A model generated the notes under the pieces. That model saw only the letters and a program-made list of their open reading frames with translations. It ran no database searches and had not been told where the DNA came from. From a virus (lineage: Duplodnaviria > Caudoviricetes), in the IMG/VR virus record IMGVR_UViG_3300049015_000032, positions 1 to 53,067 of that record: a DNA stretch of 53,067 bases; one strand, given 5' to 3'. Made by a program: the position numbers and the translations under genes. Shown here in pieces: positions 2,526-30,857 of this stretch (position 1 is its first letter; each line of letters starts with the position of its first letter).

Positions 2526-3195
2526 TAAGGAGGAGACTGATGTCCTGCTGGATGGTGGAAAGAGTGCTTGGGTCATGGATTCGCGTCTTTAAAATACCTG
2601 CAATCGCGCCGATGAGAAGCATGGCGCGTTCCACACTGATCGCCTGTTCGCCCGCCAGCGTAATCTTCTGTTCGGTTTCGACCAGTTTGCGCCGCTGCTC
2701 GAGCTTGCTGCGAATTTCTGCAACGGAGGCGTAATGCAGCACGCGCTTGTCAATCACATCGCGCATCTCACGCAGGGCTTTGCGGCATCCAGCATAGTCT
2801 TCTTTGTCGAAGCCAAGTTCGAGACCATCCACCGACTTGCGCATCATCGCCCAGGCGTCAGCGCTTTCGCCTGTTTCGAGGTTGTCGAAATCGTCCTTCA
2901 TCAACGTATCGATCAGGCGAATATCGGCGCGAACGCTTAAGAGTTCGGAATCATGTTCGCTCTCCGCGAAGCGAGACGCGAGACGTGTGGGGAGATCTTT
3001 CGACCAGCGACCGGTCTTGATGTGCGGACTGGCCAGCCCTGCGGGCGTCTTGCCCCCATGCATCCGGCAGCGGCCATTAGGCATCGCCGCATTCTTGCAG
3101 GGGTGACCACCGCGTGTTTTGGCTCCACAGAGTGGAGCAGTGTGATTGAGAGGCACGAGGGTTAGTCCTGTTGCATGGGGTTTATTCCTTTGCAT
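2503..3195 (-). CDS. HGGxSTG-motif protein, probable terminase small subunit
   Basis: CGAKTRGGHPCKNAAMPNGRCRMHGGKTP motif; overlaps the terL start. Confidence 0.75.
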   Translation of the reverse strand: MQRNKPHATGLTLVPLNHTAPLCGAKTRGGHPCKNAAMPNGRCRMHGGKTPAGLASPHIKTGRWSKDLPTRLASRFAESEHDSELLSVRADIRLIDTLMKDDFDNLETGESADAWAMMRKSVDGLELGFDKEDYAGCRKALREMRDVIDKRVLHYASVAEIRSKLEQRRKLVETEQKITLAGEQAISVERAMLLIGAIAGILKTRIHDPSTLSTIQQDISLLLNAPEAAR

Positions 3196-8143: not shown

Positions 8144-8191
8144 CGTGATCCTTTCTTTGACTGGGGACAGCCCGAAGACTGTCCCCATGCC

Positions 8192-9262
8192 CTATCCAAA
8201 CGTCATATATTTGTCCATCGCTCGATCATGAAAGTTGGGCTTGAGGCCGATATACGCCAGCGTCACAGCGGCCAGTTTATGGCGCAGCAGCAGCTGAATA
8301 TCCGGGAGCGGCATGCCTGCGTCATAGGCCAGCGCTGCCGCCGTGCGCCGTGTGTCATGCACAGCGATGGTCTTGCCAAGCGCCGCATAGGTGCGCTTGG
8401 CAACAACATCGCGGATGGCCTGGTGACTGATGCCTTTGGCCGGGGTGTAGCGCGAGATCGCCAGATAAAAGCGATCTCGATGACGCGGCTGCCAGACAGC
8501 GGTCGACGTCTCAATGCGGCGCGGATCTTCATCAGACAGCCCCGCATTGAAGGCCTCGGTATACGCCAGCACGTCCCGGTAAGCCGTCCCACTCAGAGGA
8601 ACAGGGTCAACGTTGTTGCGTTTGCCGCGCACACGAATGATATAGCGATCCGAGCCAATGGGCGTGATAGCGGCGAGGCTGATGCGTGCCAGTTCTGCCA
8701 GGCGCAGGCCTGTTGAGAAGGCCACATGCAAAAGCGCGTAATCTCTTAAGCCGTTGATGGTGGCGCGATCAATCGCTTGCAGCACCGTGTTAACCTCAGT
8801 CAGCGTCAGACGATTAAATTCCGCACGCCACAGGGGAGGAATATTGCTGACGACCTCAGGGCGGGGGACAGGCATTGTCGCCGCCTGCCGAATCTGATCC
8901 CGACAATCCGCAACAAACTCGCGCGTGGTCCCTCTTAACCCCGTGATCGGCTGATAAGACAGGGCGCGTAGGTAGTGCCGCACGCTGGCCAGATACCGGG
9001 AATAAATGGTGCTGCTTTTCAGGCCGCGCATCACCAGGTGCGCCACATAAACACGCATCAGATCTGGCGTGGGGAGCGCATCCCCAGCCCACTGCATGAA
9101 GTATTTCAAGCCTGCCGTGTAGACAGTGGACGTGTGACCCTCCTCGGTGCGGCTACTGGGCAGACTGGCGATGTGCGCGTAGACTGCGTTCACGGCAGCG
9201 CGTGGGTCGAAGTAGTCCGACCAGACCAGCGTACTGGGGGCGACAAGCTGAATCTCCATCAT
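8192..9262 (-). CDS. Tyrosine recombinase/integrase
   Basis: RDYALL...TGLRLAEL, RGKR, HDTRR, LLRH, TLAY: complete R-K-H-R-H-Y catalytic set. Confidence 0.93.
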   Translation of the reverse strand: MMEIQLVAPSTLVWSDYFDPRAAVNAVYAHIASLPSSRTEEGHTSTVYTAGLKYFMQWAGDALPTPDLMRVYVAHLVMRGLKSSTIYSRYLASVRHYLRALSYQPITGLRGTTREFVADCRDQIRQAATMPVPRPEVVSNIPPLWRAEFNRLTLTEVNTVLQAIDRATINGLRDYALLHVAFSTGLRLAELARISLAAITPIGSDRYIIRVRGKRNNVDPVPLSGTAYRDVLAYTEAFNAGLSDEDPRRIETSTAVWQPRHRDRFYLAISRYTPAKGISHQAIRDVVAKRTYAALGKTIAVHDTRRTAAALAYDAGMPLPDIQLLLRHKLAAVTLAYIGLKPNFHDRAMDKYMTFG

Positions 9263-9531
9263 GATCGTGTATGCCCCTCGCGCCATTTGCGATCCGATTG
9301 CAGATGATCGGTTTTAGAGATTGGGTAGGGATCGTAAAGCGCCGAGTCCATCCCGCCGGGCAGTCGCTCCGCGCTCTCCAGTTCGTCCCTCTGTGTCCAT
9401 CCAGTGTCTGGATGCGGTGCAGCATCCCACCAGACAATGCACATCACGACCCCATTGACTGTTTCTTGGTGCTGGATATCCCCTGCGATATGCGTTCCCT
9501 TGAGGCGGACACGGTGTCCGAGCTTATTCAT
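9259..9531 (-). CDS. Small hypothetical protein (possibly SH3/KOW-like)
   Basis: MNKLGHRVRLKG...G.I......V.WD; overlaps both neighbours. Confidence 0.55.
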   Translation of the reverse strand: MNKLGHRVRLKGTHIAGDIQHQETVNGVVMCIVWWDAAPHPDTGWTQRDELESAERLPGGMDSALYDPYPISKTDHLQSDRKWREGHTRS

Positions 9532-10264
9532 TCCCCTGGCCTTCCTTATACTGTTGGTTTCGTGGGGATCTTTCCCCATGACTACGCGTAGCATTTTTAG
9601 GTCTGTTCCACTTTGCGCGTTGGTGATCTTCGCAGAGGCTATACACATATCGCTCAGTGACATACACGGGCTGATCGCACTGGCGGCATCGCAGCCTCTC
9701 GCCTGCATCCACCTGGGCGCGCCGCTTGGCCTGGCGCGCCGCTTCCTGTTCGCGGGTGACGATCGGCAAACAACTCACACAGTAGGCGGAGACGTGGCCG
9801 CTCGGATAGCGCTGACGGGGGGCGTCACAGCGTGAACAAGACGAGGTTTCAAGATTGTGCTTTTGCTTGTGGCGTCGTCGCCTGGCTTCATAAGCGCGCT
9901 CGCAGGCTGCGCAGTACGAGCGCGGCCGTGTCTTGCCTGGCATGCGTGGGTGTTCATGGCACTCAAGGCACATCGTTTTCGATCGCTTGGGGACGCATCG
10001 CCGCTGGATGGCGCGCAGCATCTTGATTCCATCTGGCAGGATGATCCACCACGAGCGATCTTTTGAAGGCGAATGTATCCAGCCCAGGCCCCGCATCCGC
10101 TCCAGCAGTCGCCGCGTATAGCCTGTTCCCTGGACTTCAACCGCAGGCTGCTGCGTCGGGCGCAAATCCTCATCCCACAGAAAAATGAGGATTTGCAACT
10201 GCTTGCGTGAGATGAAGGGCAGGCCATCAAGACGAATGTCTTTGGGGTAATCTTCTGCTCGCAT
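9524..10264 (-). CDS. Putative DNA-binding protein, wHTH-like N-terminus plus several CxxC Zn fingers
   Basis: LERMRGLGWI; CLEC, YCAAC, CSRC, YCVSC, CRQC, CEDH. Confidence 0.65.
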   Translation of the reverse strand: MRAEDYPKDIRLDGLPFISRKQLQILIFLWDEDLRPTQQPAVEVQGTGYTRRLLERMRGLGWIHSPSKDRSWWIILPDGIKMLRAIQRRCVPKRSKTMCLECHEHPRMPGKTRPRSYCAACERAYEARRRRHKQKHNLETSSCSRCDAPRQRYPSGHVSAYCVSCLPIVTREQEAARQAKRRAQVDAGERLRCRQCDQPVYVTERYVYSLCEDHQRAKWNRPKNATRSHGERSPRNQQYKEGQGNE

Positions 10265-10282: not shown

Positions 10283-11602
10283 TTAGAACGGGGCGGTTTC
10301 AGGATCTTCGGCAGGCACTTTGGCGGCCAGCGCCTGCAAGACCTTCAGCGCATCACGGGCATCCGCATCGGCGCGATGGCGTCCCTCGCGCGCAATACCC
10401 AGCGCCTTGCAGCTCTCATCCAGGCTGGTGTATTCGTGCCCGAGATAGCGATTCGTCAGGCGCTGCACATCGGCTGTATCGGCTGCCTCCGGGAATGGCG
10501 CATCGGCGTGCGCGATCGTCCACCCTTGCATCAGAAGCCGCACATCGAAGGCCGTGTTAAATGCAGCCCAGACTTTGCCTGCCATAAAGCGTGTGATAAG
10601 ACCCATCACGGCCGGATCATTCATCGGGGGCGCATCCTTCAGCATCTCTTCATTGATGCCGTGAATGTCCTGCGCGCTCATGCCTTTGCGTCCTGGCCGC
10701 GTCAGATGGCGCATCACCTGGGGCTTGATGAGCGTCCGGTAAGCTGTCTCCCCCTTGCCATCGATGATGGCCAGTTCAACCACTTCATCGTCGCTGCCCA
10801 GCCCTGTGGTCTCCACATCGAACACGATCAGATTGTCACGCGCGAGCAGGGCTTTCGCGTCTTTGGCAGCCTCCAGCTGATAGGGCTCCAGTTCCTCGAC
10901 GGGTTCGTCGGGGCCAGCATTGGTCTCGCGGGGAGTAATGCGCTCCAGTTCCCAGAAATTGCCAACTTCTTCGATGGCGACACGAATCGGGTGCTGTTTC
11001 CAGACCGCCGTGTCACCCAGTCTCATCATCTGGAAGAAATCCAGATAACCGGCCGTCGCCAGCAGGGTCTTGTGATCTTTCAAAGGGTCGGTGTGATCGA
11101 ATAAATTGAAGGTGACGCCATCATCTGTGAAGCAGGTCCACATCGCGCGCTGGCTGCTTGTCGTCTTTGAGTAAAAGCTGCTGCGTTTGACACGGATGAC
11201 CGCGCGCAGGGCTGTCTCTGGGGATATTTCCTCACGTGGTTGGGCGGCCCGCTGCATCGCCTCGGCGGTCACCGCAGGCGTGATCACCTGCGCATGATGA
11301 GATGGCGCGCTCTGAGATTTATATTCATGCATTGCCTCGATGAGCGCAGCCCCATTCTTCTCGTCGATGATGAGTTCTCCAGACACGCACGGCGAATCAG
11401 CCAGCAGCAGCGGCTTGATGCGTTCCCAATCGGCATCCGTGATGAACTCCCGTGAGCCGCTGATGTAGCGCACCTCGACATCGCCGACAAAACCGCCTGA
11501 TCCGCGAAGACTTTGCGCGATCACATGGACAGAACCGATTGCGGCCAACCGAATATAAACAGGGCCGTAGCCATCGTCTTTCAGTAAAAACATATCGTTC
11601 AT
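10283..11602 (-). CDS. DEDDh 3'-5' exonuclease (DnaQ-like C-terminal domain)
   Basis: FDVETTG, IHGI, FNTAFD, HRADADA. Confidence 0.9.
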   Translation of the reverse strand: MNDMFLLKDDGYGPVYIRLAAIGSVHVIAQSLRGSGGFVGDVEVRYISGSREFITDADWERIKPLLLADSPCVSGELIIDEKNGAALIEAMHEYKSQSAPSHHAQVITPAVTAEAMQRAAQPREEISPETALRAVIRVKRSSFYSKTTSSQRAMWTCFTDDGVTFNLFDHTDPLKDHKTLLATAGYLDFFQMMRLGDTAVWKQHPIRVAIEEVGNFWELERITPRETNAGPDEPVEELEPYQLEAAKDAKALLARDNLIVFDVETTGLGSDDEVVELAIIDGKGETAYRTLIKPQVMRHLTRPGRKGMSAQDIHGINEEMLKDAPPMNDPAVMGLITRFMAGKVWAAFNTAFDVRLLMQGWTIAHADAPFPEAADTADVQRLTNRYLGHEYTSLDESCKALGIAREGRHRADADARDALKVLQALAAKVPAEDPETAPF

Positions 11603-12601: not shown

Positions 12602-13034
12602 GTTTCCGCCCGGCATGATGCGCGCGATAATCGTGGAGCCACGACCGTCCGAGGTCCGTGATCTGGAACGCGCGGCTAAATGTATGCCCACGCGCGTCGG
12701 CCCAGAACATATCCACCAGCTTGATACGCACGGTTCGCGTGTTGCCAGGAATAGGATGCCAGCCGCCATCGGCGAGCAAGGTCAGCGCAGCAGCCCAGCG
12801 GTGCGCCTGCGCACTGTCAAAGTCTTCATTGGAAGAGGGCATGGATGGCGCTTGCGCTGCGATGTTGGTCAGCCGATTAATGCGGCATTCCGGATGCGCG
12901 GCTTCCCACGCCGCCTGATCTTCTGCTTCCCGAATGCGTCGGGTCTGTATCGCGCGCGCCGCATTTTCAAGCGCCTGCCCGTAGCGTGTGCCGCGCAGCG
13001 CAGGCTCGATTTGATTGGTGTTCGATGTCTGCAT
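12594..13034 (-). CDS. Hypothetical protein
   Basis: GAGGTG RBS; wHTH-like C-terminus (FQITDLGRSWL). Confidence 0.6.
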   Translation of the reverse strand: MQTSNTNQIEPALRGTRYGQALENAARAIQTRRIREAEDQAAWEAAHPECRINRLTNIAAQAPSMPSSNEDFDSAQAHRWAAALTLLADGGWHPIPGNTRTVRIKLVDMFWADARGHTFSRAFQITDLGRSWLHDYRAHHAGRKHV

Positions 13035-13091
13035 TCTTCACCTCTGTTGGTGATAATATTTCCTCACGAGATTGGGTATGGGGTAGGCTTT

Positions 13092-13598
13092 TTACGCCTG
13101 TTTCTTGGCGCGGATCTTGCGAACGAAGGTGTCGACGTCGACTTTATGGCTCTGTCGCTGCTCCACTAGCTTCGAGCGATGCTTGATCCGGTTATCTTTG
13201 ATCGCGAGGTAGAGCGTATTCTCACTCACGCACAGCACCTCCGCCGCCTCGCGCACCTGCATCCAGCGGCCTGTTTCAATAGGTTGCGGCATCGCTTTCA
13301 ACGCCCTGAGTTCTTCCATAAGGGCTGCTTCACGTACCTGGTGCTCACGCAGCTGCTTCTCTTGGTGGGCGATGATGGATCTGAGATCCGACATACTGCT
13401 GTTGATCGTGATGCTGGATGTGGCGGGATTGAGATTGCCCCGCACATAAAGCGTGTGCTTGATCGCATCAAAGATCTGCTGTTTGTTCACATGCGAGGGG
13501 AAAGTGATGGTCAGATCGACACTGTCTTCCTCCTTCACACGCTCAAGCGTGGCCAGCATCCCCTTGCTCATCGCTTTCGCCTGCGCTGTGGTCATCAT
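13092..13598 (-). CDS. HTH DNA-binding protein (excisionase/MerR-like C-terminus)
   Basis: WMQVREAAEVLCVSENTLYLAIKDNRI after a coiled coil. Confidence 0.75.
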   Translation of the reverse strand: MMTTAQAKAMSKGMLATLERVKEEDSVDLTITFPSHVNKQQIFDAIKHTLYVRGNLNPATSSITINSSMSDLRSIIAHQEKQLREHQVREAALMEELRALKAMPQPIETGRWMQVREAAEVLCVSENTLYLAIKDNRIKHRSKLVEQRQSHKVDVDTFVRKIRAKKQA

Positions 13599-13600
13599 GG

Positions 13601-13972
13601 CTACGCGTCTCCCTGCGAATTGTTGAGCATATCACTCAGCTCATCGAGCGCCCCATCACGCTGCGCTACCAGCTCTTCAATCGCCAGTTGCTGCATCTGA
13701 ACCAGCGTCACACTCCGCAGAAGAAGCTCCTGCGTCTCGGACCACTGACCACCGATAGCCGTCGCCGTATCCCAGGCCGCCATCAGCGCCGTCTGGGCTT
13801 CAAGACGCGCGGGTTCTGGCAGTTGATCGAGTAAAGCCCAAGCCTCATTCAACCGGGCTTGTATGTGCGCCATCCCCTGCTCACGCACCCGCGCAATATC
13901 CAGCGTCTTGTCGTCCAGTGTGGGCAGCGAGGGGAGGTCGTGCGTCGTTGTGTTGGAGAGGGTCGCGGTCAT
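13601..13972 (-). CDS. Helical hypothetical protein
   Basis: ATGA overlap; similar to the N-half of 13969-14652. Confidence 0.65.
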   Translation of the reverse strand: MTATLSNTTTHDLPSLPTLDDKTLDIARVREQGMAHIQARLNEAWALLDQLPEPARLEAQTALMAAWDTATAIGGQWSETQELLLRSVTLVQMQQLAIEELVAQRDGALDELSDMLNNSQGDA

Positions 13973-14652
13973 TCGTCTGCCTCGTCGTCTTCGGCGTTGT
14001 GTCCACCCAGATCGTGCAGGACAGGGGCCAGAGGATCGCGCCGGATAATCGATGGCTGCGTCGTTGCGAATAGCTTGCGGATCAAATCGCGCTGTTCATC
14101 GGTCGGCTCGCTGTTGCCAACCAGGAGCGCAATCACAGCATCTCCCGACACATACGGCACATCCCAGGTCTCCATGATCATGTCGTAAAGATACTCATCC
14201 GCTTGCTCCGCTGCGCCTTCGTACACCGATTCCAGCACATAGGGGTCGTTCAACACGTCTTCGCGCTCATCCGCGCGGATACTGGAGGCATACTCTGACA
14301 GCCGGGGATGCGACTCATCCCCCTTTTTGATCGACGTCAGTAGCATCTGCAATTCCGTCACCGCCTGATCGCGCTGCGAGACAGCCGCACCGATGGCGGC
14401 ATCTGCGCCCGCAATGACTGCCGCCTGCTGCGTCGTCATAGTATGGATAGCAACCGCCTGGTTGTAAGCCGTCTCGACCCTTGCGGCAGCGACGTCATTG
14501 CCGCCCTTTTTGAGCTTCTCATGAAGCGGCATCAACTCGTCGTAAATCGCGTTGATCGCGGCGTCCGCCAGCATGGGATTGGCAAGGGCTTGCGCCTGCA
14601 CAGTCCACATCTCAAGCGGCGTCTGGGTTTGTTGAGGATCTGTTGTTGTCAT
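13969..14652 (-). CDS. Helical hypothetical protein
   Basis: GGAG RBS before MTTTDP. Confidence 0.65.
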   Translation of the reverse strand: MTTTDPQQTQTPLEMWTVQAQALANPMLADAAINAIYDELMPLHEKLKKGGNDVAAARVETAYNQAVAIHTMTTQQAAVIAGADAAIGAAVSQRDQAVTELQMLLTSIKKGDESHPRLSEYASSIRADEREDVLNDPYVLESVYEGAAEQADEYLYDMIMETWDVPYVSGDAVIALLVGNSEPTDEQRDLIRKLFATTQPSIIRRDPLAPVLHDLGGHNAEDDEADE

Positions 14653-14733
14653 AAGACTGAGTCTCCGGGTCGATGCCCGTCTAAGAGGGGACGATGGGGG
14701 CATGGTATGCCATGCCCTTAAGGAGTGGTGACG

Positions 14734-16080
14734 TTACTGGCCGAGCAGCAGAGGCACAACCGCAGCGCCCTGCGGCTGTGATGCTCGCATGGCATCCATA
14801 ACCTTCGCTTTGACCTTCTCGTTCATCGCGGCGATCAGCTCATCCGCTGTGATGCCGGATGCGAGGGTTGCGGCCATCGGCATGGCCTGGGGATCAATCA
14901 GCCGATCTCCCACCCGGATCAGACCATCATCGCGCTGGCGTTTCTGACGCGCGCGCGCCTGCGCGATCATGCGCCCCGCCGCCTTCTGGCCCACAGTCGC
15001 CTTGCGCGCGGCATAGATCATGGCCTCACGCTTCACAGGGTCCATCTCGGACTTCCAGGCAGGCTCACCGTCATCCATATGGATGTAGATCTCCTCTACC
15101 TCCGGGGATGTCGGCGTCTCGTCAAGAGTCCCATCACCGATCACCTCAGCCGCGATGTCCTCATAAGACGGAAGATCTGCGGACACGTGCGCTTCCATCG
15201 GGGAATGCGCTTCGTCCTGAGCATCACGTTCAAGGCGGACCATATGGCAGACTTCCTTGTCATAGGCGGGCAGGACGTAGGCGGCCTCGAAAGCGACGCG
15301 CCAACCCTGATTGATAAAATCCGTCAGTGAGCCATCATCAATGTCAGGGTGAGTGGTCGTCTCGATCTTGCCCCGCTGGGCAGAGGCTGGCTGCATCTGA
15401 AGCACCACCCGATCCGCCATCGTGTCATACCGCGCCAGTTCGCCTTCCAGGTAGCGGATGTAGTCCGCCTTCCCTTTCAACTCATCCATCAGCCCATTGG
15501 AGATGGTGAGCTGCGCCTTGAGCTTGGCATCGTAGTCAACGGTCAGATCATGGATCTGCTTTTCAAGCGCATCATGCTGCTCACTCAGTGTCGCCGTTTC
15601 CTCACGCAGGCCTGCGATCAAGGCGTCTTTCTTGGCCGCGATATCAATCTCGCGCTGAGCAATGGTGGATGCGGGCGTAGCCGCCAATTCCTTGACATCC
15701 ACCCAGTGCAAAGGTAGCTCGGGGAAGTCGATATATTCCACGCGGCGAGAAGAGAACAGATCCGTGCCGATAATATGAACACGTTCGCCTGTGGCTTCGA
15801 GGATGGCATCCGTGTTCACGGCCCACTCCTGGAGCCGTGTTTCGGCATCCTGCGCATCACGCGAATCTCGCCATTCACCGATAAATCCGCTGCCGGACTT
15901 CACATGGCCTTTCTCTATCAGCGATTCAGCGGCCTTCGCAAAGAAGGCGTTCACATTCTGCCCAGGGATCGGGATAGGACCGAGCAAAGCGCTGTCGTCC
16001 TGTGGCATCGCCTCTAAATCGGCCATCGCTGCCGGATCGATCCGGTCAGGTGATGGCCCGAATTGTGTTGTTTCATCCAT
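14734..16080 (-). CDS. Hypothetical protein with central coiled coil
   Basis: 448-aa ORF, GAGG RBS. Confidence 0.75.
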   Translation of the reverse strand: MDETTQFGPSPDRIDPAAMADLEAMPQDDSALLGPIPIPGQNVNAFFAKAAESLIEKGHVKSGSGFIGEWRDSRDAQDAETRLQEWAVNTDAILEATGERVHIIGTDLFSSRRVEYIDFPELPLHWVDVKELAATPASTIAQREIDIAAKKDALIAGLREETATLSEQHDALEKQIHDLTVDYDAKLKAQLTISNGLMDELKGKADYIRYLEGELARYDTMADRVVLQMQPASAQRGKIETTTHPDIDDGSLTDFINQGWRVAFEAAYVLPAYDKEVCHMVRLERDAQDEAHSPMEAHVSADLPSYEDIAAEVIGDGTLDETPTSPEVEEIYIHMDDGEPAWKSEMDPVKREAMIYAARKATVGQKAAGRMIAQARARQKRQRDDGLIRVGDRLIDPQAMPMAATLASGITADELIAAMNEKVKAKVMDAMRASQPQGAAVVPLLLGQ

Positions 16081-16145
16081 CTGAAGAACCTCATAAGTGT
16101 ATGAGGGCTGCTCGGGTTCCGTCCGCCAGCCCTCGTGGACGATGG

Positions 16146-16418
16146 CTAGACAGGCTGCCCGAACTGCGCCAGGAAATCGCGCGCATGCTCGGCTTGCTTA
16201 TAGCGGGCGGGTAGCAGCTTTAGAATGTTCGCGAGGTGGGTCACAGCTTCTTCGAGCAGGTTTTCAAGGCTGGCCACGTCATCCAGGCCAACCGCAGGCT
16301 CCCACTCACGGACAAGTTGTTCAGGAGTCATCCGCTGGTCCAGGTCGGCCAGCAGCGTTTGGGGATCTAGGGCTGTATCAGTTTGCGCGGAAGACGTCAC
16401 GCGCGTGTCAGGCGTCAT
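16146..16418 (-). CDS. First gene of the leftward early operon, hypothetical
   Basis: GAGG RBS; 90 aa. Confidence 0.6.
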   Translation of the reverse strand: MTPDTRVTSSAQTDTALDPQTLLADLDQRMTPEQLVREWEPAVGLDDVASLENLLEEAVTHLANILKLLPARYKQAEHARDFLAQFGQPV

Positions 16419-16472
16419 AAGGCCTCATTTTAAGAACAGACTTACGAGGGGTTACGTCTGGTTCACAACTTT

Positions 16473-16943
16473 CTCATGTTAGGGAACCTACATGAGTGTC
16501 ATCCAATGGATGACAACGTTGAGAAGAGAGGTTACAATGCGCGGTTGAGGCGCATTCCGTCTCAGTTCCGTTGATCGTGCTCCCCTGATAAGTGAGCGAT
16601 CCTCGGAAAGATGCAAAAACGCTCGTAAGAGCGCCGATTTCAGTGGATGGAGTCAGTGTTGACGCACTGGCTTCATCTTCACATAGCGTCATATTTTTAA
16701 GATGACGTTATGTAATGATAACGCTGTTCTAATGTTTGACGCAATCGGTCTTACGTCGGGTTTCGGTTGCGTTCTCGTTACGATTAGAAACTTTGTGCGA
16801 ATTGCCTATACGATTTACCGACCATTGGCTGACCTCAAGGCGATACCAGCGTAGGGAAATCGTTGCTCAATCGGATGTTAAGGTGCGGATTAGGAGCGCA
16901 TCTTAAGGATCTTTGCGTTCCTGTAGATCGTTACTGTGATCTA
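16473..16943 (+). ncRNA. Candidate large structured non-coding RNA (about 11 adjacent stem-loops)
   Basis: Back-to-back inverted repeats whose non-canonical pairs are G-T on the + strand; no convincing ORF. Confidence 0.55.
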
Positions 16944-16948
16944 ATAAA

Positions 16949-16977
16949 AGAATAACATGGATTCTAGCTCATGTCAA
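16949..16977 (-). promoter_or_regulatory. Leftward sigma70-type promoter
   Basis: TTGACA (16977-16972), 17 bp, TATTCT (16954-16949) with an extended TGn. Confidence 0.7.
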
Positions 16978-17028
16978 TCTAGTCATACATGGGTTTATGG
17001 ATATCTTTATTATTTGTCTGACTACTGG

Positions 17029-17057
17029 TTGACACTGGTATTGAATCGGGATAGTAT
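17029..17057 (+). promoter_or_regulatory. Rightward sigma70-type promoter
   Basis: TTGACA, 17 bp, TAGTAT, upstream of the HTH gene. Confidence 0.75.
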
Positions 17058-17077
17058 TGAAAGGAAAGAATGCGAGG

Positions 17078-17341
17078 ATGGCCGTGTTAAACAGATTCCA
17101 AACCCTTCTTCGGAATAAGCGTGCCAAAGAAGATCGAGAGATCAAAATCGAGGATATCGCAGAAGAAATCAACATCTCGCGCGATACACTGTCGAGGTAT
17201 GCCAACCAGAGAATCAAGCGCTATGATTCAGCAACGGTCGAAGCCCTTTGCCGCTATTTCGGCGTTGAGGTGGGGGATTTTCTTTATCTTGAGCCAGGCA
17301 TTGAATTGGACAAAATTCGTCAAGCGGAGGCTCAACCATAA
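17078..17341 (+). CDS. XRE/Cro-C1 family HTH regulator
   Basis: IEDIAEEINISRDTLSRYAN...LCRYFGVEVGDFL. Confidence 0.88.
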   Translation: MAVLNRFQTLLRNKRAKEDREIKIEDIAEEINISRDTLSRYANQRIKRYDSATVEALCRYFGVEVGDFLYLEPGIELDKIRQAEAQP

Positions 17342-17577
17342 TGCCCGTAGCAGAACTTCGCTTGGTTGATCTCTGGGCTGACAAGATGAAGCGCGAAAAG
17401 CGTGTCATCCCTGTAACCGAGATCGCCCACGCCTGTGGTATAAAGCGCCAGAATGCCTACAAATGGTTAAACAATGAGATCAAATGCGCTCCGCTCAAAA
17501 CCATTGCGGCCCTGTGCTTGTATTTCGAGTGTACTCCCAACGATCTGATTGTAGTGAGAAGGGAGCATGCATCGTGA
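17341..17577 (+). CDS. Second XRE/Cro-C1 family HTH regulator
   Basis: VTEIAHACGIKRQNAYKWLNN...LCLYFECTPNDLI; TAATG coupling to the first. Confidence 0.88.
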   Translation: MPVAELRLVDLWADKMKREKRVIPVTEIAHACGIKRQNAYKWLNNEIKCAPLKTIAALCLYFECTPNDLIVVRREHAS

Positions 17578-17698
17578 CTGTTTCCCCCTCCCCCACCAGA
17601 TCCAGCAGGGCGGGGCAGGCAGAACAGATTATCGACTTTGGGGACTCGCATTTTTTTGCGGTTTGATGTTATAGTTGGTGAGAAGCAATATTCGTAAT

Positions 17699-17727
17699 AC
17701 TTCATGGGGATATATCCCCACGAAACA
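17699..17727. repeat. Palindromic site, consensus GTTTCGTGGGGATATATCCCCACGAAAC
   Basis: 17704-17727 is identical to 21333-21356; related copies at 9557-9581 (inverted), 17827-17854, 21263-21290, 13050-13071, 11220-11236. Confidence 0.85.
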
Positions 17728-17977
17728 AGTGGTTTATCCCATAAAAGCGAAGACCCCCACATTTAACGGATGCAGGGGTCTCAAAATTCAATTCGAAGCG
17801 CCTGACGCGCACTAACGAAAGGTTCGGTTTCGTGATGATATATTCACACGAGACATCATACCCTATTGGCCGTGCATTGGTCAACAGGTTCGCCACAATT
17901 GTGACGACTCTCCTATGCAGCGTTAAGATACAGCTGCCCCCCTCCCCTCTTGCCGCACTTCATGGGGGAATATCATC

Positions 17978-19090
17978 ATGACCACTCAGAAAGCACAACA
18001 CTCAGAGCGTATCCCAGGGCTGATGGCTGAAAAATCCATTCCAGCATATCCCCACCTTGCGTCTGTTTTGGGCGTCAACGAAGCCATTATCCTTCAGCAG
18101 GTCTATTTCTACGTAACTCTTCACAGCCGCAAGAAGAGTACTCAGCATTTTCACGATGGTAAGTTTTGGGTCTTTAACAGCTATAAACAGTGGCGGGATC
18201 AGCATTTCCCCTGGCTGACAGCGCGCGGCGTTCAAAGCATCATCCTCAGGCTGGAGACAAAAGGACTGCTCATCAGCCGACAGGGACTTGAGAATCCCCA
18301 GGATCGGCGCAAATGGTACACCATCGACCTTGAGAAGTTGGCAAAGCTCATTCCTACTTCAAAAATCAATAGTACACAGACTGCACGTCCAACAAACACT
18401 GACTGCACGTCCAACATGCATGAAATGATCGATGATTCTACAGAGAGTACTTCAGAGAATACATTCAGAGAAAAAGAACTACAGAAACAAACAACAACAG
18501 AAATCGATGTTGTTGTTGATTCGCCTGCCCTGCCCTACCGGGAACCAGAAGCGGAATCAGGAGAGCATTCCCTCGACGGAGAAGGGCACGATGCAACGGC
18601 TGTCAAAGCCTTTGTGCCGCACGAACAGCACCACGACGAACAGCCCTTTCCAAAAGTTCCGGTAAAAGGTTTTCCGGCCCTGGTTGCCGAACTCGTCAAA
18701 TTCAGAGTGCTACCTGTCACTGCACAGCGCCTCGTGGATCGGTATCCAGAAGTGGACGTGCGGTATGTCCTGGAGTATGCGCGCGGCGAATCGAGCCTGC
18801 GTAATCCCCCTGGCTTCGTCGTGGATGAATTAGACACGAGGAAACATGGCGTGTTAGCAGCACGTGATCAGAATAAATATATTCAGACGCTTTCGCCCTC
18901 TCCGCAGCCAAAAAGATTCATCCCGCCCGATGATTTCGTTTGCACCGATGAGGAGCGAGAAGAAATTGGGTTGATCGGATTTGAGCGTTTCATGGCTCTC
19001 CGACATGAGATAGAGCGATACGAAGCCGAAGATAGAGAACGTGCCACCGGGCAGACGTTGACCGTAGACCCACACATCGAATACGCTTAG
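17978..19090 (+). CDS. Phage replication initiator (wHTH)
   Basis: LGVNEAIILQQVYFY...GKFWVFNSYKQW...FPWL...LETKGLL...DRRKWYTID; C-terminal RNPPGFVV. Confidence 0.8.
   Translation: MTTQKAQHSERIPGLMAEKSIPAYPHLASVLGVNEAIILQQVYFYVTLHSRKKSTQHFHDGKFWVFNSYKQWRDQHFPWLTARGVQSIILRLETKGLLISRQGLENPQDRRKWYTIDLEKLAKLIPTSKINSTQTARPTNTDCTSNMHEMIDDSTESTSENTFREKELQKQTTTEIDVVVDSPALPYREPEAESGEHSLDGEGHDATAVKAFVPHEQHHDEQPFPKVPVKGFPALVAELVKFRVLPVTAQRLVDRYPEVDVRYVLEYARGESSLRNPPGFVVDELDTRKHGVLAARDQNKYIQTLSPSPQPKRFIPPDDFVCTDEEREEIGLIGFERFMALRHEIERYEAEDRERATGQTLTVDPHIEYA
18374..18520. other. Candidate replication origin inside the rep gene
   Basis: Two 21-bp repeats ACAC(A/T)GACTGCACGTCCAACA at a 22-bp period, then an A-rich CAGAGA/CAGAAA tract and the inverted repeat CAACAACA..TGTTGTTG. 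Confidence 0.5.
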
Positions 19091-19121
19091 AGTGCCCAGA
19101 AGGGCAGAGGACTTAAAGACC

Positions 19122-19913
19122 ATGAAGACGATTACACTCTTGAACGAAAAGGGAGGCGTGGGTAAGACGACCCTGGCACAGACATTAGCATCGGGTTTGG
19201 CGCGTGATGGATATACCGTCATGGCGATTGACAGCGATCCCCAGGGGACGCTGACGTATGGCATGGGCCAGCAGCGTGCGCCGCATTTCTACAATCTCAT
19301 CCAGCGCAAAGAACCCTGGGCCAACCTGGCTCGCCAGATCGCGCCGGATCGGATTGCGTCTGACACAAGGGGCCGTCTCTTTTTGCTCCCTGGGGACCGC
19401 GAGACTCGTAACCTCAATGTTGAGGATGCCGCCCTACTGCTCAAGCGCCTGAATGAGATCAAGCAAAGTTTTGATTACGTCATCATCGACACAGCGCCCA
19501 GCGCCAGCTTGCTCCATATCCTGGTGTATCTGGCCAGCGATTATATTCTTTACCCTACGCAGCTGGAGATGTTCTCGATGCAGGGCTTGAAGCAGTCAAT
19601 TCAGGTGATGGCTGAATACACGGAATTTCGCGCCGCCCGCCGCCTGCCGCCGATTGAGCTGCTCGGCATTGCCCCAACCATGACGCGCCTCAATACAGGC
19701 GGTCACACGGCAAACATGGCAGATCTGCAAAAGACGCCGTATAAGGTTTTGCGCCCGATTCACAATCGCATCGCCTGGTCCGACGCAGCCGCGACTCGGC
19801 GCAGCATCTTCGCCTATGATCCAACCTGTGAGGCTGCCAAAGATGCTGATACGTTTATCAACCAGGTGAAGCAGGTTCTGGGTATTGATGTGGCGGGGGT
19901 GCAGGATGGCTAA
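19122..19913 (+). CDS. parA: ParA family partition ATPase
   Basis: Deviant Walker A KGGVGKTT, IDSDPQG, DYVIIDTAP. Confidence 0.93.
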   Translation: MKTITLLNEKGGVGKTTLAQTLASGLARDGYTVMAIDSDPQGTLTYGMGQQRAPHFYNLIQRKEPWANLARQIAPDRIASDTRGRLFLLPGDRETRNLNVEDAALLLKRLNEIKQSFDYVIIDTAPSASLLHILVYLASDYILYPTQLEMFSMQGLKQSIQVMAEYTEFRAARRLPPIELLGIAPTMTRLNTGGHTANMADLQKTPYKVLRPIHNRIAWSDAAATRRSIFAYDPTCEAAKDADTFINQVKQVLGIDVAGVQDG

Positions 19914-20712
19914 GCCAAGACCTGCTCGTGAGAGTGCGTTTGAGGAAGAGGAATCTCCCATCCCTTTTATCTCTGCCACTGGAGTCAACGAGATCTACGA
20001 AAAGGGCTTTTCTGGATTGCCCGACAGCGTCTATGAAGACCCCTCCCAGAAGCGTATCGAGGAGCTGGAAGATCAACTCGCAAACATACTGCAAGGACAG
20101 TCTAACGGGCTTGTTGTGCAAGATGGCGCTCTTATGGTGCAGGGCTTTCAATTCTCGCCTACAGGCCTTGTGGCTCATGGCGAGATTGATAAGGAAAGCT
20201 GGACATCCATTGGAGGTCTGATTCACAGACTTCAGGGATCTATTCAATGGCTTATTGGCGATTGGATCGTGTATGGCCAAACTCTTAAGTATGGTGAACT
20301 GGAAGACATTGCCGAGTCGGTGGGCTATAAGCCGCAAAGTGTTTACAAATACAGCTACGTTTCGCGGAATGTTGAATTTTGCATACGTATGCAAAATCTA
20401 TCCTGGGCGCATCACCAGTTGGTTGCTCCTCTGACGCCAGAACAGCAAAAGTTTGCGCTGGAACATGCCACTACACAGAAGCTCTCTGTGGCGAAATTCA
20501 GAGATTGGATCAACGAACAAACCGGGCAACCTGCTGCTCCCGCCCTCCCCCACTCGGTAGGGCAGGGCGCTAAATCTGCGTTCAGTAGTTTAGAGAAATT
20601 GGCCCAGCGCGATCCTTCTACGTATAAACCAAAGGATAAAGTAGCCATTTTAGGGTATGCGGCACAGATGCAAGCATGGATCGACGATCTTGTAGCGAAG
20701 GCGAAATCATAA
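19906..20712 (+). CDS. LmbU-like DNA-binding protein (putative ParA partner)
   Basis: QWLIGDWIVYG...YG...IAESVGY..QSVYKYSYVSR...R..NLSWAHHQLVA...LSVAKFR; overlaps the parA stop. Confidence 0.7.
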   Translation: MAKPRPARESAFEEEESPIPFISATGVNEIYEKGFSGLPDSVYEDPSQKRIEELEDQLANILQGQSNGLVVQDGALMVQGFQFSPTGLVAHGEIDKESWTSIGGLIHRLQGSIQWLIGDWIVYGQTLKYGELEDIAESVGYKPQSVYKYSYVSRNVEFCIRMQNLSWAHHQLVAPLTPEQQKFALEHATTQKLSVAKFRDWINEQTGQPAAPALPHSVGQGAKSAFSSLEKLAQRDPSTYKPKDKVAILGYAAQMQAWIDDLVAKAKS

Positions 20713-21215
20713 TGGTTAAAGAGATTTTGCTCACTCAGGGGGCGATCTCTCTGGTGTCTGATGAGGATGCGGATTTGGCGGCCTACTCTTGGTATGTGCA
20801 GCGCTTAAAGTATGCCTTAAGACTCAGCCACAAGGATGATCGCGGGATTTGGGTGCGTCAATATCTTCATCGCGCAGTCATGGAAAAGGTGATAGGTCGT
20901 GCATTGCAACGCTATGAGTCTGTTGATCATATTGATCGGAACGGCCTTAATAACACACGCGAAAACCTACGCATCGTCAATCAAAGTCAAAATTGTGCCA
21001 ATCGCAGTCTTGGCATCAATAGTAAGAGTGGATATAAAGGCGTGTCGTGGAACGCGCAACTGCAGAAGTGGTGTGCATACATATCCTTCCATCGCAAGAA
21101 AATGCATTTAGGATACTTCACGAGTAAGCACGATGCTGCGCGTGCTTATAACGCAAAAGCAATTGAACTGCAAGGAATTTACGCCAACGTTAACGACGTT
21201 GATGAACGGTTGTAG
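20712..21215 (+). CDS. HNH endonuclease with AP2 domain
   Basis: LHRAVM...VDHIDRNGLNNTRENLR; SGYKGVSW...HLGYF...AARAYN. Confidence 0.92.
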   Translation: MVKEILLTQGAISLVSDEDADLAAYSWYVQRLKYALRLSHKDDRGIWVRQYLHRAVMEKVIGRALQRYESVDHIDRNGLNNTRENLRIVNQSQNCANRSLGINSKSGYKGVSWNAQLQKWCAYISFHRKKMHLGYFTSKHDAARAYNAKAIELQGIYANVNDVDERL

Positions 21216-21262: not shown

Positions 21263-21356
21263 ATCTCGCGTTGATATATCCCCACGAAACGCATAACGCC
21301 CCAGATGATGGGGCGTTACGATTCTTATAGTTATGGGGATATATCCCCACGAAACA
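21263..21356. repeat. Two copies of the palindromic site separated by a hairpin
   Basis: GATATATCCCCACGAAAC at 21273 and 21338; TAACGCCCCA/TGGGGCGTTA stem at 21294-21318. Confidence 0.85.
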
Positions 21357-22217: not shown

Positions 22218-22254
22218 ACTCAAAAACGCTCCAGGATCTGGAGCGTTTTTGAGT
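22218..22254. terminator. Bidirectional intrinsic terminator
   Basis: ACTCAAAAACGCTCCAG-GAT-CTGGAGCGTTTTTGAGT between convergent genes. Confidence 0.85.
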
Positions 22255-22279
22255 TGAATAAACTGCAAAACCTTGTGCA

Positions 22280-22498
22280 TCAACCAGGCACTTTGTCCTT
22301 TTCCTCAACCTCGCCAGCCGCCAGCATCAAAGCAAACAAGATCGCCCCACTTCGATTGAATCCCATTTCGCCGCCTGGTCTAACCTTTGACCGGGTTGCG
22401 ATTCCCAATTCACCCATACGACCCGCGTGACGCTTGATAATTTTTTCCAGCAGTAGCTCGTGTTCGTCGGACCACATGATGTTAACGCGCTCACCCAT
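22280..22498 (-). CDS. Small regulator, ribbon-helix-helix-like
   Basis: RVNIMWSDEHELLLEKI...NRSGAILFAL; divergent from a consensus promoter. Confidence 0.6.
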   Translation of the reverse strand: MGERVNIMWSDEHELLLEKIIKRHAGRMGELGIATRSKVRPGGEMGFNRSGAILFALMLAAGEVEEKDKVPG

Positions 22499-22574
22499 CG
22501 AATAACCCTTCCACTATCAATCGAAGCATATTTAGAGAATATACACTAAATGTATATTTGTCTAGTCCCCACGC

Positions 22575-22602
22575 TTGACAATATACACACTCGATGTATA
22601 AT
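22575..22602 (+). promoter_or_regulatory. Consensus sigma70 promoter overlapped by an operator-like inverted repeat
   Basis: TTGACA, 16 bp, TATAAT; AATATACA-N7-TGTATAAT here and AATATACA-N5-TGTATATT at 22538-22558. Confidence 0.8.
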
Positions 22603-22639
22603 TAGGTTATCGAATAAGTGATTTTGAAAGGTCACAGCG

Positions 22640-22903
22640 ATGCAAGACACCCTCGTTATCACCCCTCTTGGAAAGCTGGTCAATCTGGACGCACTCATTG
22701 GCGCGACCGTGCAGGCCAAGCCGTTTGATGATCCAGTCTTCAAGCATGAGACATACATCGGCACGATTGACGAGGTGAAGCTGAATCGCGCTGGCACATG
22801 GATTCACTTCAAGACAGGAGATCTTGTCGGCGCGAAATGGGTCAAACTCAATAAAGTCGTCGGCTTCGCTCATTTTGCACAAAACGCAAAAGCGACAGCC
22901 TAA
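22640..22903 (+). CDS. Hypothetical protein
   Basis: First ORF after the promoter. Confidence 0.65.
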   Translation: MQDTLVITPLGKLVNLDALIGATVQAKPFDDPVFKHETYIGTIDEVKLNRAGTWIHFKTGDLVGAKWVKLNKVVGFAHFAQNAKATA

Positions 22904-28188: not shown

Positions 28189-28680
28189 TCAGGCGAATAT
28201 CGCGACAATCGACTTCGCCGCTTCCACGTACTGCGCCTTCAGCGGATTGGTCGAGGCGGCAGTGGCGTTCTTCACATTGGCCGCACTCCAGCCATACGCC
28301 AGAGCCATCACGTCAATGTTGTTGTTCAGCGCCACAAGCAGCTGCGGATTGCCATCGACAAAGGCTTTAATCGTGCTGAAGATGGTGCCCAGATTCGGAT
28401 TGGCGCTGCGCAGCTGGTCACGGAGATAGCGCCGCGCCGTTCGCGCCAGATCGGACGAGGTTGACACGCTTGCGTCATCGGTCACGTTCGTATTGGCCGT
28501 GTCCAGCGCCGCCTCCAATGTGGCGTTACTCGGCGTGACGTCGACAGGGGCGGGGCGCTCATCATAGATTTTGCGCCCTGCCGCATCAATGAACGGCGTG
28601 CCTTGAAACGCGCCGGGATTGGCGGGTATCCAGACACCCGCCGCTAATCGGAACTTTTCGTCACTATCAATGACCGCCAT
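28189..28680 (-). CDS. Tail-fibre-associated protein
   Basis: TGATG-coupled to the fibre gene. Confidence 0.6.
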   Translation of the reverse strand: MAVIDSDEKFRLAAGVWIPANPGAFQGTPFIDAAGRKIYDERPAPVDVTPSNATLEAALDTANTNVTDDASVSTSSDLARTARRYLRDQLRSANPNLGTIFSTIKAFVDGNPQLLVALNNNIDVMALAYGWSAANVKNATAASTNPLKAQYVEAAKSIVAIFA

Positions 28681-30857
28681 CAGGACACCTTTCGCAGGAT
28701 AAGACTGGTATAGACTTCCGCGCTGCCATCGCCAACCTGCGCGCCTAAACCGTTGGTGGCGCGGCCCACGCTGGTATAGGTGTCTACGCGAAAGGCATCT
28801 GTGCCGTTGGCCGTGAATTTGCAGTTGAGGATGGCCGTCGCCGCGCCATTGGTCAGGCCAAACGTATTGACCCCCTCTTCCATTGCCGCTGCGCCTGTCA
28901 CGTTATATAGGCGGCAGCGACCGAGTGACGACGCCGCGCCGCCGCCCACGAACGGCGCAAAGACCAGAATTTCATAATCGCCTGCGATGGGCGTAAATTG
29001 ATTGGAGGAGATGGACACAATGCCGCCCGGATCATACAACTCCGTATTCAGATCGCGCGCGTTCCACGTGGTGGACGCGCTTGTGCCGCCATTTGTGCCG
29101 GTCGTCTTTTCGTCGCGCAAAATGGCGATGAGATTCGGCGCAAGGCCGCTTGACGCCGCTGTGAGACGCCCCTTCTGATCAACAGTGAGTGACGCATTCG
29201 TATAGCTTCCAGGCGTCACAGCGGTGTCATTGAGACTGATAGAGGGCGTTGCGCCGCCGCTTGACGCAATGGGTGACGTTCCTCCAACACTTGTGACGGG
29301 GGTTGCGCCACTAGAGGCCGCCGTGAGCCGTCCTTTTTGATCGACTGTAATCGAGGCGTTTGTGTAACTGGCGGGCGTGACGGCTGTGTTCGGCAGATCC
29401 GCGCTCACAAGGGCGCGCAAATCAACCGCGCCCGATGATCCATCAGGCGTCGCGAGAACTTGATTCTGTGTCAGCCCTGTTGTGGCGGCAATCGTGACCG
29501 CGCCGAGGCTGCTCGTGGTCGTCGTCAGCCATGCGATCGAGTCGGCAACGGACATGATCTTGCCCATCAACTGCCATGTGGCGACCGGGCCAACCTTTTT
29601 GATCATCTCCCAGATGCGATTGCCCGTCTGATTGATCCATTTCGACCCGCGCTCATAATCCGCCGCGTCTGCCGAAGTCGGGTCAACGGTGTCGGTGTAA
29701 ATAATCGAGGCATCGAGATAGCCGATGCTGATCGGCGGCAAATCGACGGTCTCAATCTCGCGAAAGGACGGTTGTCCATCCGTGCCAATCCCGCTGCTGG
29801 GGGCTGCCAGGAACGTGTTATAGAGCTGATCCTTCCACGTGGTCGTAACCGTATCTGTGCCGTTGCCGCTGACATCAAATTCAGCGCTGGGCATGACGAG
29901 GTTTTCGACTGTGCCACCCCCGCCCGACTCCTCTTCTTCCGTCTCACTGAGCAGATACAGCAGCGCATTGTCCTGGATCGTGATGACGCCGCCCTCCTCA
30001 ACCACGATGGCCGAGGGCGCGACGACACTGAAGTCCTCGTGAATGCGGTAGGCGCGCGCGATCGTGTTGGGGAAGCCGTACACCTGCGGCATGTTCATGA
30101 ACTGGCGCAGGTCCAGATCGGTGCTGTCATCGAGCGTCAGGGTGGTCTGGGCATCGGCGAGGCGAAAGGCCTGAATCGGGATGGTATCCGCGTCGGCGGC
30201 ATCCGCGCACTGCTGCAGCTCGGTGAAGGACAGCGCGCCATCGATGCTGTCGATGTGATCGCTGTAGGTGACCTGAATGTCGGGCAGCCCATTGGGGTTG
30301 TAGGTCCGCAGCCAGAGCACGACATAACACTGGAAGCCCTCAGCGGGCACATAATTCGTCAGATCGATGTGCGTGTCGGCATTGGTGCCGTTCCAGCGCA
30401 CCAGATCGCCGGTGACGGTGTAATAGAACAGCTGGCGCACCTGCGCCAACATCCCAGGGGTATTGCCCGTATTGATGGGTAGGGCGCGGAAGTTCTGAAT
30501 GTTCTTGAAGCGAATCCACTGGCGGTAGGGATCATTGGGCTGCACCGTCAGCGGGTCAATGCCGGCCTGGATCAGATCATCATGGTCATACGCCATCACG
30601 GTGAGGTGTTTGTCGGGACCATAGTAGATCCAGACCAGGCGCCCTTCACGCGGGACAATGAGCGCGCTGCCGGCGCGCACCCGGTAGGGCGCGCCGGGGG
30701 TGGCGTTGTTCTGCGCGTTGGCGGCATTGTAGGGGCGCACCCAATACATGCCGTCCCCCGCTTTGACCGTGCCATTTCCATCTCCCAGGAGGGCGCGATA
30801 GGGGGTCAGACGCGCCTGGACAATGCGCCGCGACCGTTGAAATCTTCCAAGCACCAT
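28680..30857 (-). CDS. Tail fibre / receptor-binding protein
   Basis: Thr/Ser-rich; two TAVTPxSYTNASxTVDQKGRLTAASSG repeats (29145-29225, 29307-29387); last large tail gene. Confidence 0.8.
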   Translation of the reverse strand: MVLGRFQRSRRIVQARLTPYRALLGDGNGTVKAGDGMYWVRPYNAANAQNNATPGAPYRVRAGSALIVPREGRLVWIYYGPDKHLTVMAYDHDDLIQAGIDPLTVQPNDPYRQWIRFKNIQNFRALPINTGNTPGMLAQVRQLFYYTVTGDLVRWNGTNADTHIDLTNYVPAEGFQCYVVLWLRTYNPNGLPDIQVTYSDHIDSIDGALSFTELQQCADAADADTIPIQAFRLADAQTTLTLDDSTDLDLRQFMNMPQVYGFPNTIARAYRIHEDFSVVAPSAIVVEEGGVITIQDNALLYLLSETEEEESGGGGTVENLVMPSAEFDVSGNGTDTVTTTWKDQLYNTFLAAPSSGIGTDGQPSFREIETVDLPPISIGYLDASIIYTDTVDPTSADAADYERGSKWINQTGNRIWEMIKKVGPVATWQLMGKIMSVADSIAWLTTTTSSLGAVTIAATTGLTQNQVLATPDGSSGAVDLRALVSADLPNTAVTPASYTNASITVDQKGRLTAASSGATPVTSVGGTSPIASSGGATPSISLNDTAVTPGSYTNASLTVDQKGRLTAASSGLAPNLIAILRDEKTTGTNGGTSASTTWNARDLNTELYDPGGIVSISSNQFTPIAGDYEILVFAPFVGGGAASSLGRCRLYNVTGAAAMEEGVNTFGLTNGAATAILNCKFTANGTDAFRVDTYTSVGRATNGLGAQVGDGSAEVYTSLILRKVS

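Follow-up and report, generated by a model that had tools for sequence, protein, structure and literature searches.

A compact, probably composite hairpin cluster between the leftward and rightward operons of a temperate tailed phage

Results

A non-coding gap separates two oppositely directed operons

The window (the whole stretch of DNA that was analysed, 53,067 bases) is a complete virus genome, and its source is a temperate tailed phage. The genes that orient the reader in it are as follows.

1107-2576, minus strand: large terminase
8192-9286, minus strand: integrase
10283-11602, minus strand: RNase T-type exonuclease
13092-13598, minus strand: HTH_17 protein
14734-16080, minus strand: 448-aa protein of the leftward operon, without convincing family match
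16146-16418, minus strand: 90-aa gene, first of the leftward operon, without family match, with GAGG 4 nt before its ATG
17078-17341, plus strand: HTH1, Cro/C1-type, head of the rightward operon
17341-17577, plus strand: HTH2, Cro/C1-type
17978-19090, plus strand: Rep, with DnaD-like and O-like PHROG matches
19092-19913, plus strand: ParA
28680-30857, minus strand: tail fibre
51015-53042, minus strand: portal and head morphogenesis

No gene of the leftward operon has a convincing family match. Between this operon and the rightward HTH-HTH-Rep-ParA operon lies a gap of 659 nt (16419-17077) that lacks codon periodicity and has a GC content of about 0.45 (range 0.42-0.50), as against about 0.58 in the genes. 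The longest open reading frame of the gap encodes 72 aa (16474-16692, minus strand); its GC content by codon position is unlike that of a gene, it has no Pfam match, and among 1.84 billion representative proteins it finds one marginal match (E 4e-4). The drop in GC, the loss of periodicity and the lack of convincing matches to this frame together show that the gap is non-coding, in agreement with a preliminary description that had been made by inspection of the letters. The plus strand of the region is rich in G+T, and no leftward protein repressor gene is present in the gap.

Promoter-like sites in the gap face each other

Both strands of the 53 kb were scanned for TTGACA and TATAAT separated by 16 to 18 nt, with at least 10 of 12 positions matching. 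Three of the seven sites in the genome fall within the 659-nt gap; the calls are consensus matches in an AT-richer region.

16510-16538, plus strand: Pint, sigma-70-like match ATGACA-17-TACAAT (10/12), predicted start at about 16545
16949-16977, minus strand: PL, TTGACA-17-TATTCT (10/12), with TG before the -10 hexamer, predicted start at about 16942
17029-17057, plus strand: PR, TTGACA-17-TAGTAT, just before the HTH1 gene

The preliminary description had placed the start of the leftward transcript at about 16942 and had noted that a block of hairpins, 16473-16943, is antisense to the leader of some 520 nt that would result. The consensus match of PL, ending at 16949, fits that start, and the positions of the block fit the predicted leader of about 520 nt from there to the ATG at 16418. 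As the only good match upstream of the leftward genes, PL makes the minus strand of the block the one that is most surely transcribed. The same description had seen no clear promoter on the plus strand; this does not hold, as Pint is located within the block. An RNA started there would leave out the first three hairpins or begin within them. Upstream of 16473 the consensus scan found no promoter-like site on the plus strand. Pint faces PL, and the two predicted transcripts overlap by about 400 nt, with the hairpins lying within the overlap. Intrinsic terminators are lacking within the block on either strand, none closes a plus-strand RNA, and none interrupts the predicted leader between the PL start and the 90-aa gene at 16418. 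A possible duplication between the Pint and PR regions was rejected, since their similarity score of 29 is not significantly above that of 300 shuffles, which gave 23.1 (sd 3.9).

Elsewhere in the genome, the only perfect TTGACA-16-TATAAT (22575-22602, plus strand) has palindromes around it and lies ahead of an 87-aa gene (22640-22903). The stretch 22218-22640 that precedes this gene begins with a strong bidirectional terminator (22218-22254), followed by a minus-strand 72-aa open reading frame (22280-22498). Together with the 87-aa gene it resembles another divergent module, of a switch-like or toxin-antitoxin-like kind; neither of the two reading frames matches Pfam. A terminator-like hairpin with a T run on the plus strand just after HTH2 (17646-17661) may set the transcription of the HTH genes apart from that of Rep. 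In the 400 nt that separate HTH2 from Rep there is also a candidate small RNA gene of about 105 nt (17742-17884, minus strand). It has a promoter-like TTGACC-18-TATGAT (17884 to 17855), a terminator hairpin of 13 bp with a T tail (17782 to 17750) and a folding z of only -1.94. It opposes the rightward operon in the manner of a plasmid-type countertranscript upstream of rep.

Structure above chance is confined to the left half of the block

All 11 of the stretches that had been named as hairpins do form them when folded singly (-4.9 to -21.6 kcal/mol on the plus strand), and the GTAA tetraloop reported at 16620-16633 is present. Folding energies were then expressed as z scores against dinucleotide shuffles. 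Taken as a whole, the block 16473-16943 outdoes its shuffles on either strand (plus, z -4.99; minus, z -5.19; none of 100 shuffles as good for each). This is due to its left 248 nt, 16473-16720, which carry seven hairpins and reach z -6.78 on the plus strand and -5.69 on the minus strand (none of 200 shuffles on each) and -7.48 when refolded with DNA parameters. The right part, 16721-16943, which holds the last four hairpins, is at chance on the plus strand (z +0.23, 115 of 200 shuffles as good) and on the minus strand (z -0.35, 65 of 200). The expectation of folding better than shuffled sequence on both strands is thus borne out for the block as a whole and for its left half and fails for its right half. 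Structure above chance is limited to 16473-16720, and the last four hairpins are what such a composition yields anyway.

In a genome scan with 300-nt windows, 16451-16750 ranks second in structure, the first place being taken by the ordinary bidirectional terminator at 22218-22254. Every hairpin differs in sequence from the others. Centroid folds contain no long-range helices that would close domains, so that the hairpins are arranged as beads on a string. The region does not stand out when perfect palindromes are counted in stretches of 250 nt. We conclude that a tight local cluster of seven hairpins in about 240 nt is real.

A lean towards the plus strand downstream of Pint

A fold of five consecutive hairpins on the plus strand begins at the very first nucleotide of the transcript predicted from Pint, and its minimum-energy and centroid structures are the same. 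Its components are listed here; H4 to H7 are given without strand.

16545-16713, plus strand: candidate structured RNA domain of five consecutive hairpins, from folding
16545-16565, plus strand: 5' hairpin of the candidate domain
16566-16608: H4, with a bulge and an internal loop
16620-16633: H5, with a GTAA loop on the plus strand only
16645-16678: H6, with 4 G-U pairs on the plus strand
16681-16713: H7, with 1 G-U pair on the plus strand

The stretch 16545-16720 has z -5.96 on the plus strand and -3.91 on the minus strand. When 897 windows of 176 nt across the genome were scored on both strands, its plus strand ranked first of the 1794 combinations. The difference between its strands, about 2 sd, is reached by 2.5% of windows one-sided and by 6.5% two-sided. 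Wobble pairs were counted as well. The preliminary description had counted about eight G-T pairs and no A-C pairs in favour of the plus strand; that count was inexact, the minimum-energy hairpins of all 11 stretches having 14 G-U pairs on the plus strand and 5 on the minus strand. The asymmetry is largely compositional, since the plus strand is rich in G+T and the shuffles therefore absorb most of it. Only hairpins downstream of the predicted Pint start contain wobbles, with four in H6 and one in H7 (isolated folds) and two more in the 5' hairpin, as read by eye from the fold of 16545-16720.

Individual hairpins point both ways. H6, H7 and the hairpin at 16727-16789 reach -21.6, -13.6 and -17.4 kcal/mol on the plus strand as against -11.2, -8.8 and -10.4 on the minus strand, where their stems are broken by C-A mismatches, and H4 and the 16811-16862 hairpin are slightly stabler on the minus strand. 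Folding of the plus strand, which had been put forward as favoured, is indeed mildly favoured over 16545-16720; over the whole block the two strands are equal. Given this equality and the G+T-rich plus strand, we regard the strand call as a lean and not as a result.

Perfect palindromes surround Pint

The left end of the cluster differs in kind from the domain just described. Its three palindromes contain no wobble pairs and are placed at and around Pint, and a fourth site like the first of them lies at PL; none is assigned to a strand.

16473-16496: H1, palindrome CTCATGT-N10-ACATGAG that encloses a further stem of 3 bp, with Watson-Crick pairs only, just upstream of Pint
16497-16515: H2, perfect 9-1-9 palindrome whose right arm contains the -35-like hexamer of Pint
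16536-16556: H3, perfect 7-7-7 palindrome over the -10 hexamer and predicted start of Pint
16968-16993: H1-like palindrome CTCATGT-N12-ACATGGG, overlapping the -35 hexamer of PL

The H1 heptamer occurs four times in the window, counting both strands, with three of the four copies inside the gap, and the paired H1 pattern was found three times against an expectation of none (none in shuffles). H3 is unique in the window at zero mismatches, and neither its half-site nor that of H2 shows any specific repetition. The arrangement of H1-H3 looks like operator architecture, and we treat the three as candidate operators, more likely to be DNA sites than RNA hairpins. The operator reading is unproven, since H2 and H3 lack specifically repeated half-sites and the spacers of the two H1-type sites differ (10 as against 12 nt), which is awkward for a single dimeric protein.

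Other palindromic elements were seen in the genome. A 21-nt motif, made up of a 14-bp perfect palindrome and a tail, is found at 17706-17726, 21335-21355, 21270-21290 and 9557-9577 (two exact copies and two with 2 mismatches, with a fifth, overlapping match on the opposite strand with 3; none in shuffles). One copy falls between HTH2 and Rep and two flank a terminator hairpin after an HNH gene, and the motif is a candidate repeated binding site, whether operator, iteron or parS. A perfect 22-bp palindrome (11-0-11) at 20376-20397, in a 275-aa open reading frame after ParA, may be a partition site. The stretch 8162-8479, which covers the 3' end of the integrase gene and the sequence just past it, is structured (z about -3.7 on either strand) and has three perfect palindromes whose arms measure 9 to 11 nt; they may relate to attP or to a terminator.

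Relatives are distant and few

The absence of a known Rfam family, as supposed in the preliminary description, was confirmed. Rfam 15 gave no match at gathering scores over the whole window (the models include those of the C4/P4-CI type, ROOL and GOLLD), and at E <=10 over 16300-17150 it gave only two noise matches, both far below cut-off: the model of a trypanosomatid snoRNA scored 17.1 bits where 47 are required, and PhotoRC-I 11 bits where 45 are required. A blastn search of 16100-17400 against GenBank phages and PLSDB plasmids found nothing, and a 20-mer from the core of H6 is absent from IMG/VR.

Protein searches reached somewhat further. Single-protein scans of IMG/VR found no relative of Rep or of the 448-aa protein. 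A search with an alignment of five Rep sequences found 39 viral loci (IMG/VR) and 17 genome loci (GTDB), at identities of at most 43% and in the N-terminal domain only. None of the 39 viral loci shares the gap DNA (best blastn E 0.24; nothing by nhmmer); the comparison was restricted to these, the 17 genome loci being mostly low-GC phages and genomes whose upstream gaps are not comparable. In the Rep relatives P0002-P0004 some 50 residues in the middle of the protein form an acidic segment that is conserved, though the N-terminal domains are only 46-56% identical overall. The portal protein finds four distant loci in IMG/VR. HTH1 has only six relatives among 5.8 billion proteins (P0033-P0038, 63-82% identity, on contigs of 0.5 to 33.5 kb), and scans with an alignment of these gave one distant metagenome locus (33% identity) and no viral locus. 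Against cultured phages, tblastn with HTH1 and the large terminase found distant relatives only, at no more than 41% identity.

Parts of 13000-21000 are contained in 15 DNA runs from soil or rhizosphere, and no RNA run containing them is on record. Contigs of four of the DNA runs (X2-X5) were compared with 15500-18000. X2 covers the flanks only and X5 has no matching contig. X3 contains a near-identical strain with one listed difference in the covered portion of the left half. From X4 comes one diverged contig of 151 nt at low depth, which differs from the window at 8 of the 78 nt of 16615-16692; the two differences that are listed fall in a linker (16637) and at a terminal wobble pair (16645). 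The contig matches the window at the core of H6, and its letters beyond the aligned stretch are unlike the window; in a hand alignment of the 30 loose letters the 3' arm of H7 is kept and its loop differs. The pattern fits selection on the stems, but it comes from a single low-depth contig and is silent on strand or molecule.

Discussion

The feature analysed here is smaller than had been claimed and probably composite. It most likely belongs to a known kind of phage control element, and nothing about it points to a new class. We tentatively favour a model in which the left 240 nt of the gap combine operators with a structured plus-strand RNA domain, some 170 nt long, that opposes the leftward leader as its antisense, a reading that we hold to be quite possible and still somewhat short of probable. 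We prefer it because it is the most economical account of the promoters, of the different placement of perfect palindromes and wobble-containing hairpins, and of the strand lean. The hairpins, the promoter-like matches and the placement of wobbles and palindromes are seen in the sequence; from these we infer the firing of any of the promoters, the existence of the RNA, the binding of proteins and the regulatory outcome.

According to the model, H1-H3 would be protein operators on duplex DNA around Pint, probably for one of the two adjacent Cro/C1-type HTH proteins, and a site like H1 would also lie over the -35 hexamer of PL. Transcription from Pint, starting at about 16545, would produce a plus-strand RNA whose first 170 nt or so form the five hairpins of 16545-16713. 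This RNA would run head-on into PL and would be fully complementary to the leftward leader of about 520 nt, so that the leftward operon would be damped by interference from convergent transcription, by antisense pairing, or by both. Alternatively or in addition, the Pint RNA may serve as the upstream leader of the rightward HTH-Rep-ParA operon. The more canonical antisense-type unit at 17884-17742 raises the possibility that RNA-based control is in use in this phage. A more ambitious form of the proposal is that uncultivated soil phages encode an undescribed plus-strand countertranscript of about 170 nt or more that replaces the missing leftward protein repressor in silencing the leftward operon, by RNA-based immunity or by control through convergent transcription, with its promoter gated by H1-H3, and that early control is largely RNA-based, including the second antisense unit before Rep. 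We consider this form rather unlikely.

Cis-acting leaders are known from the PL operons of lambdoid phages and from P4 and P1, and it is conceivable, if on the whole doubtful, that the hairpins act on the minus strand, as the 3' half of the PL leader of about 520 nt, in mRNA stability, processing, termination or antitermination, or in translation of the 90-aa gene. PL is a good match with a TG before its -10 hexamer, and no other such site precedes the leftward genes; no intrinsic terminator interrupts the path from PL to the ATG at 16418, and the hairpin array ends 55 nt before that ATG. The minus strand of 16473-16720 is, moreover, folded far better than shuffles (z -5.69), and H4 and the 16811-16862 hairpin are slightly stabler there. 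However, the C-A mismatches interrupt the stems of H6, H7 and 16727-16789 on just this strand, 16545-16720 is the weaker there (z -3.91 as against -5.96), the first 220 nt or so after the PL start are at chance (z -0.35), and Rfam models gave no match.

The element might instead work purely at the level of DNA, as a set of protein-binding palindromes: these could be distal operators that loop to PL and PR some 480 bp away, or a single-strand initiation or primosome-assembly site for the DnaD/O-like initiator. The two strands are nearly equally significant, as the symmetry of a duplex would give, the z score with DNA parameters is -7.48, H1, H2 and H3 are perfect palindromes, and an H1-like site recurs at PL. 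Rep, with its DnaD-like and O-like PHROG matches, is encoded 1.3 kb to the right, with ParA adjoining. Against this, the sequences of the hairpins are all different, so that at most two sites would share a protein; the bulge and internal loop of H4 and the G-T wobbles of H6 and H7 would be irrelevant or harmful to duplex sites; direct repeats of the iteron type are absent; and another palindromic motif, with 4 to 5 copies elsewhere in the genome, is a better candidate for a repeated binding site. We judge an account in terms of DNA sites throughout to be unlikely.

Phage gaps of this kind are mosaic junctions, and the hairpins might have no function, being by-products such as decayed palindromes or recombination remnants in a fast-evolving junction. 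The cluster is known from a single genome, and the right half of the block is already at chance. We nonetheless find this explanation improbable: none of 200 shuffles folds as well as 16473-16720 on either strand, the region stands near the top of the genome-wide ranking of structure, X3 has one listed difference in the covered left half, and X4 matches at the core of H6, with letters unlike the window beyond the aligned stretch. The original proposal of one large and ornate RNA, non-coding and some 470 nt long, with 11 hairpins on the plus strand, to which the z of the whole block (-4.99), the excess of G-U pairs (14 vs 5) and the novelty implied by the lack of any known family would lend themselves, is very improbable, as the right 223 nt are at chance with only 16473-16720 above it, centroid folds have no long-range closing helices, no promoter-like site precedes 16473 on the plus strand, the sole one (Pint) being internal, no terminator follows, and there is no sign that it is widely conserved (0 matches in the phage, plasmid and IMG/VR searches).

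The comparison of that proposal with ROOL and GOLLD, which like other large ornate RNAs occur in prophages, is not warranted. Large ornate RNAs of this kind are among the subjects treated in PMC12286853; the present element shares with them a phage setting, a non-coding character and many stems, and differs in that no covariance model matches, only about 240 nt are structured and long-range closing helices are lacking.

A different kind of counterpart might be sought among replication sites. The plasmid pAMbeta1 has a single-strand initiation and primosome-assembly site, ssiA, which resembles the cluster as a strand-dependent group of hairpins near a replication initiator, where G-T wobbles would be usable in single-stranded DNA; unlike ssiA, the cluster is in a promoter region and not beside a mapped origin.

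Among leaders, the put sites of HK022 are two stem-loops directly downstream of a promoter. Like these and the nut leaders of lambdoid phages, the gap would place a structured RNA in an early-left leader. In contrast to put, the first 220 nt or so after the PL start are unstructured (16943-16721, minus strand, z -0.35) and the array follows 230 to 470 nt downstream; the same value over the first 223 nt of the PL leader speaks against an antiterminator of the put type.

The small RNAs P4 CI, P1/P7 C4 and those of N15 and Gifsy-1 (IsrK) are cut from the leader of the very operon under their control. In the phage studied here, too, an early operon would begin with a long untranslated leader, the gap is devoid of a leftward protein repressor gene, and the region of the GTAA hairpin H5 is flanked left and right by short complements (16441-16453, 11/13; 16746-16755, 9/10). 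These complementarities, of 7 to 13 nt, are by our estimate of chance size for the region: about 1 to 2 of them would be expected in 900 nt, and 25 inverted pairs are listed there in all. Unlike these immunity RNAs, the gap has no Rfam match at gathering scores or at E <=10, and its hairpins fold better on the strand opposite the leader. RNA immunity of the P4/P1 type is among the subjects treated in PMC4825925.

The closest parallels to the model that we favour are the switches based on cis-antisense or convergent transcription: pR and pL of coliphage 186, PRE against cro in lambda, sar and ant in P22, and prgQ and prgX of pCF10. As in these, Pint and PL are facing matches whose predicted transcripts overlap by about 400 nt, with stable stem-loops in the overlap (z -5.96 on plus, -3.91 on minus). 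The overlap in phage 186 is reportedly 62 nt, so that the one predicted here would be longer. The hairpin domain also differs from the known examples in that it does not cover the ribosome-binding site of a target gene, in being known from sequence alone, and in having no sequence or family relationship to them. Phage 186 and convergent promoters are among the subjects treated in PMC5001618 and PMC7708051. Should the cluster be operators or a structured leader only, it would be ordinary. If the plus-strand RNA is real, it would be a new, sequence-unrelated example of antisense or convergent control at a lysis-lysogeny switch, from a soil phage lineage without cultured relatives in which both early regulators are small Cro/C1-type proteins, and would widen the known designs of phage immunity while opening no new principle.
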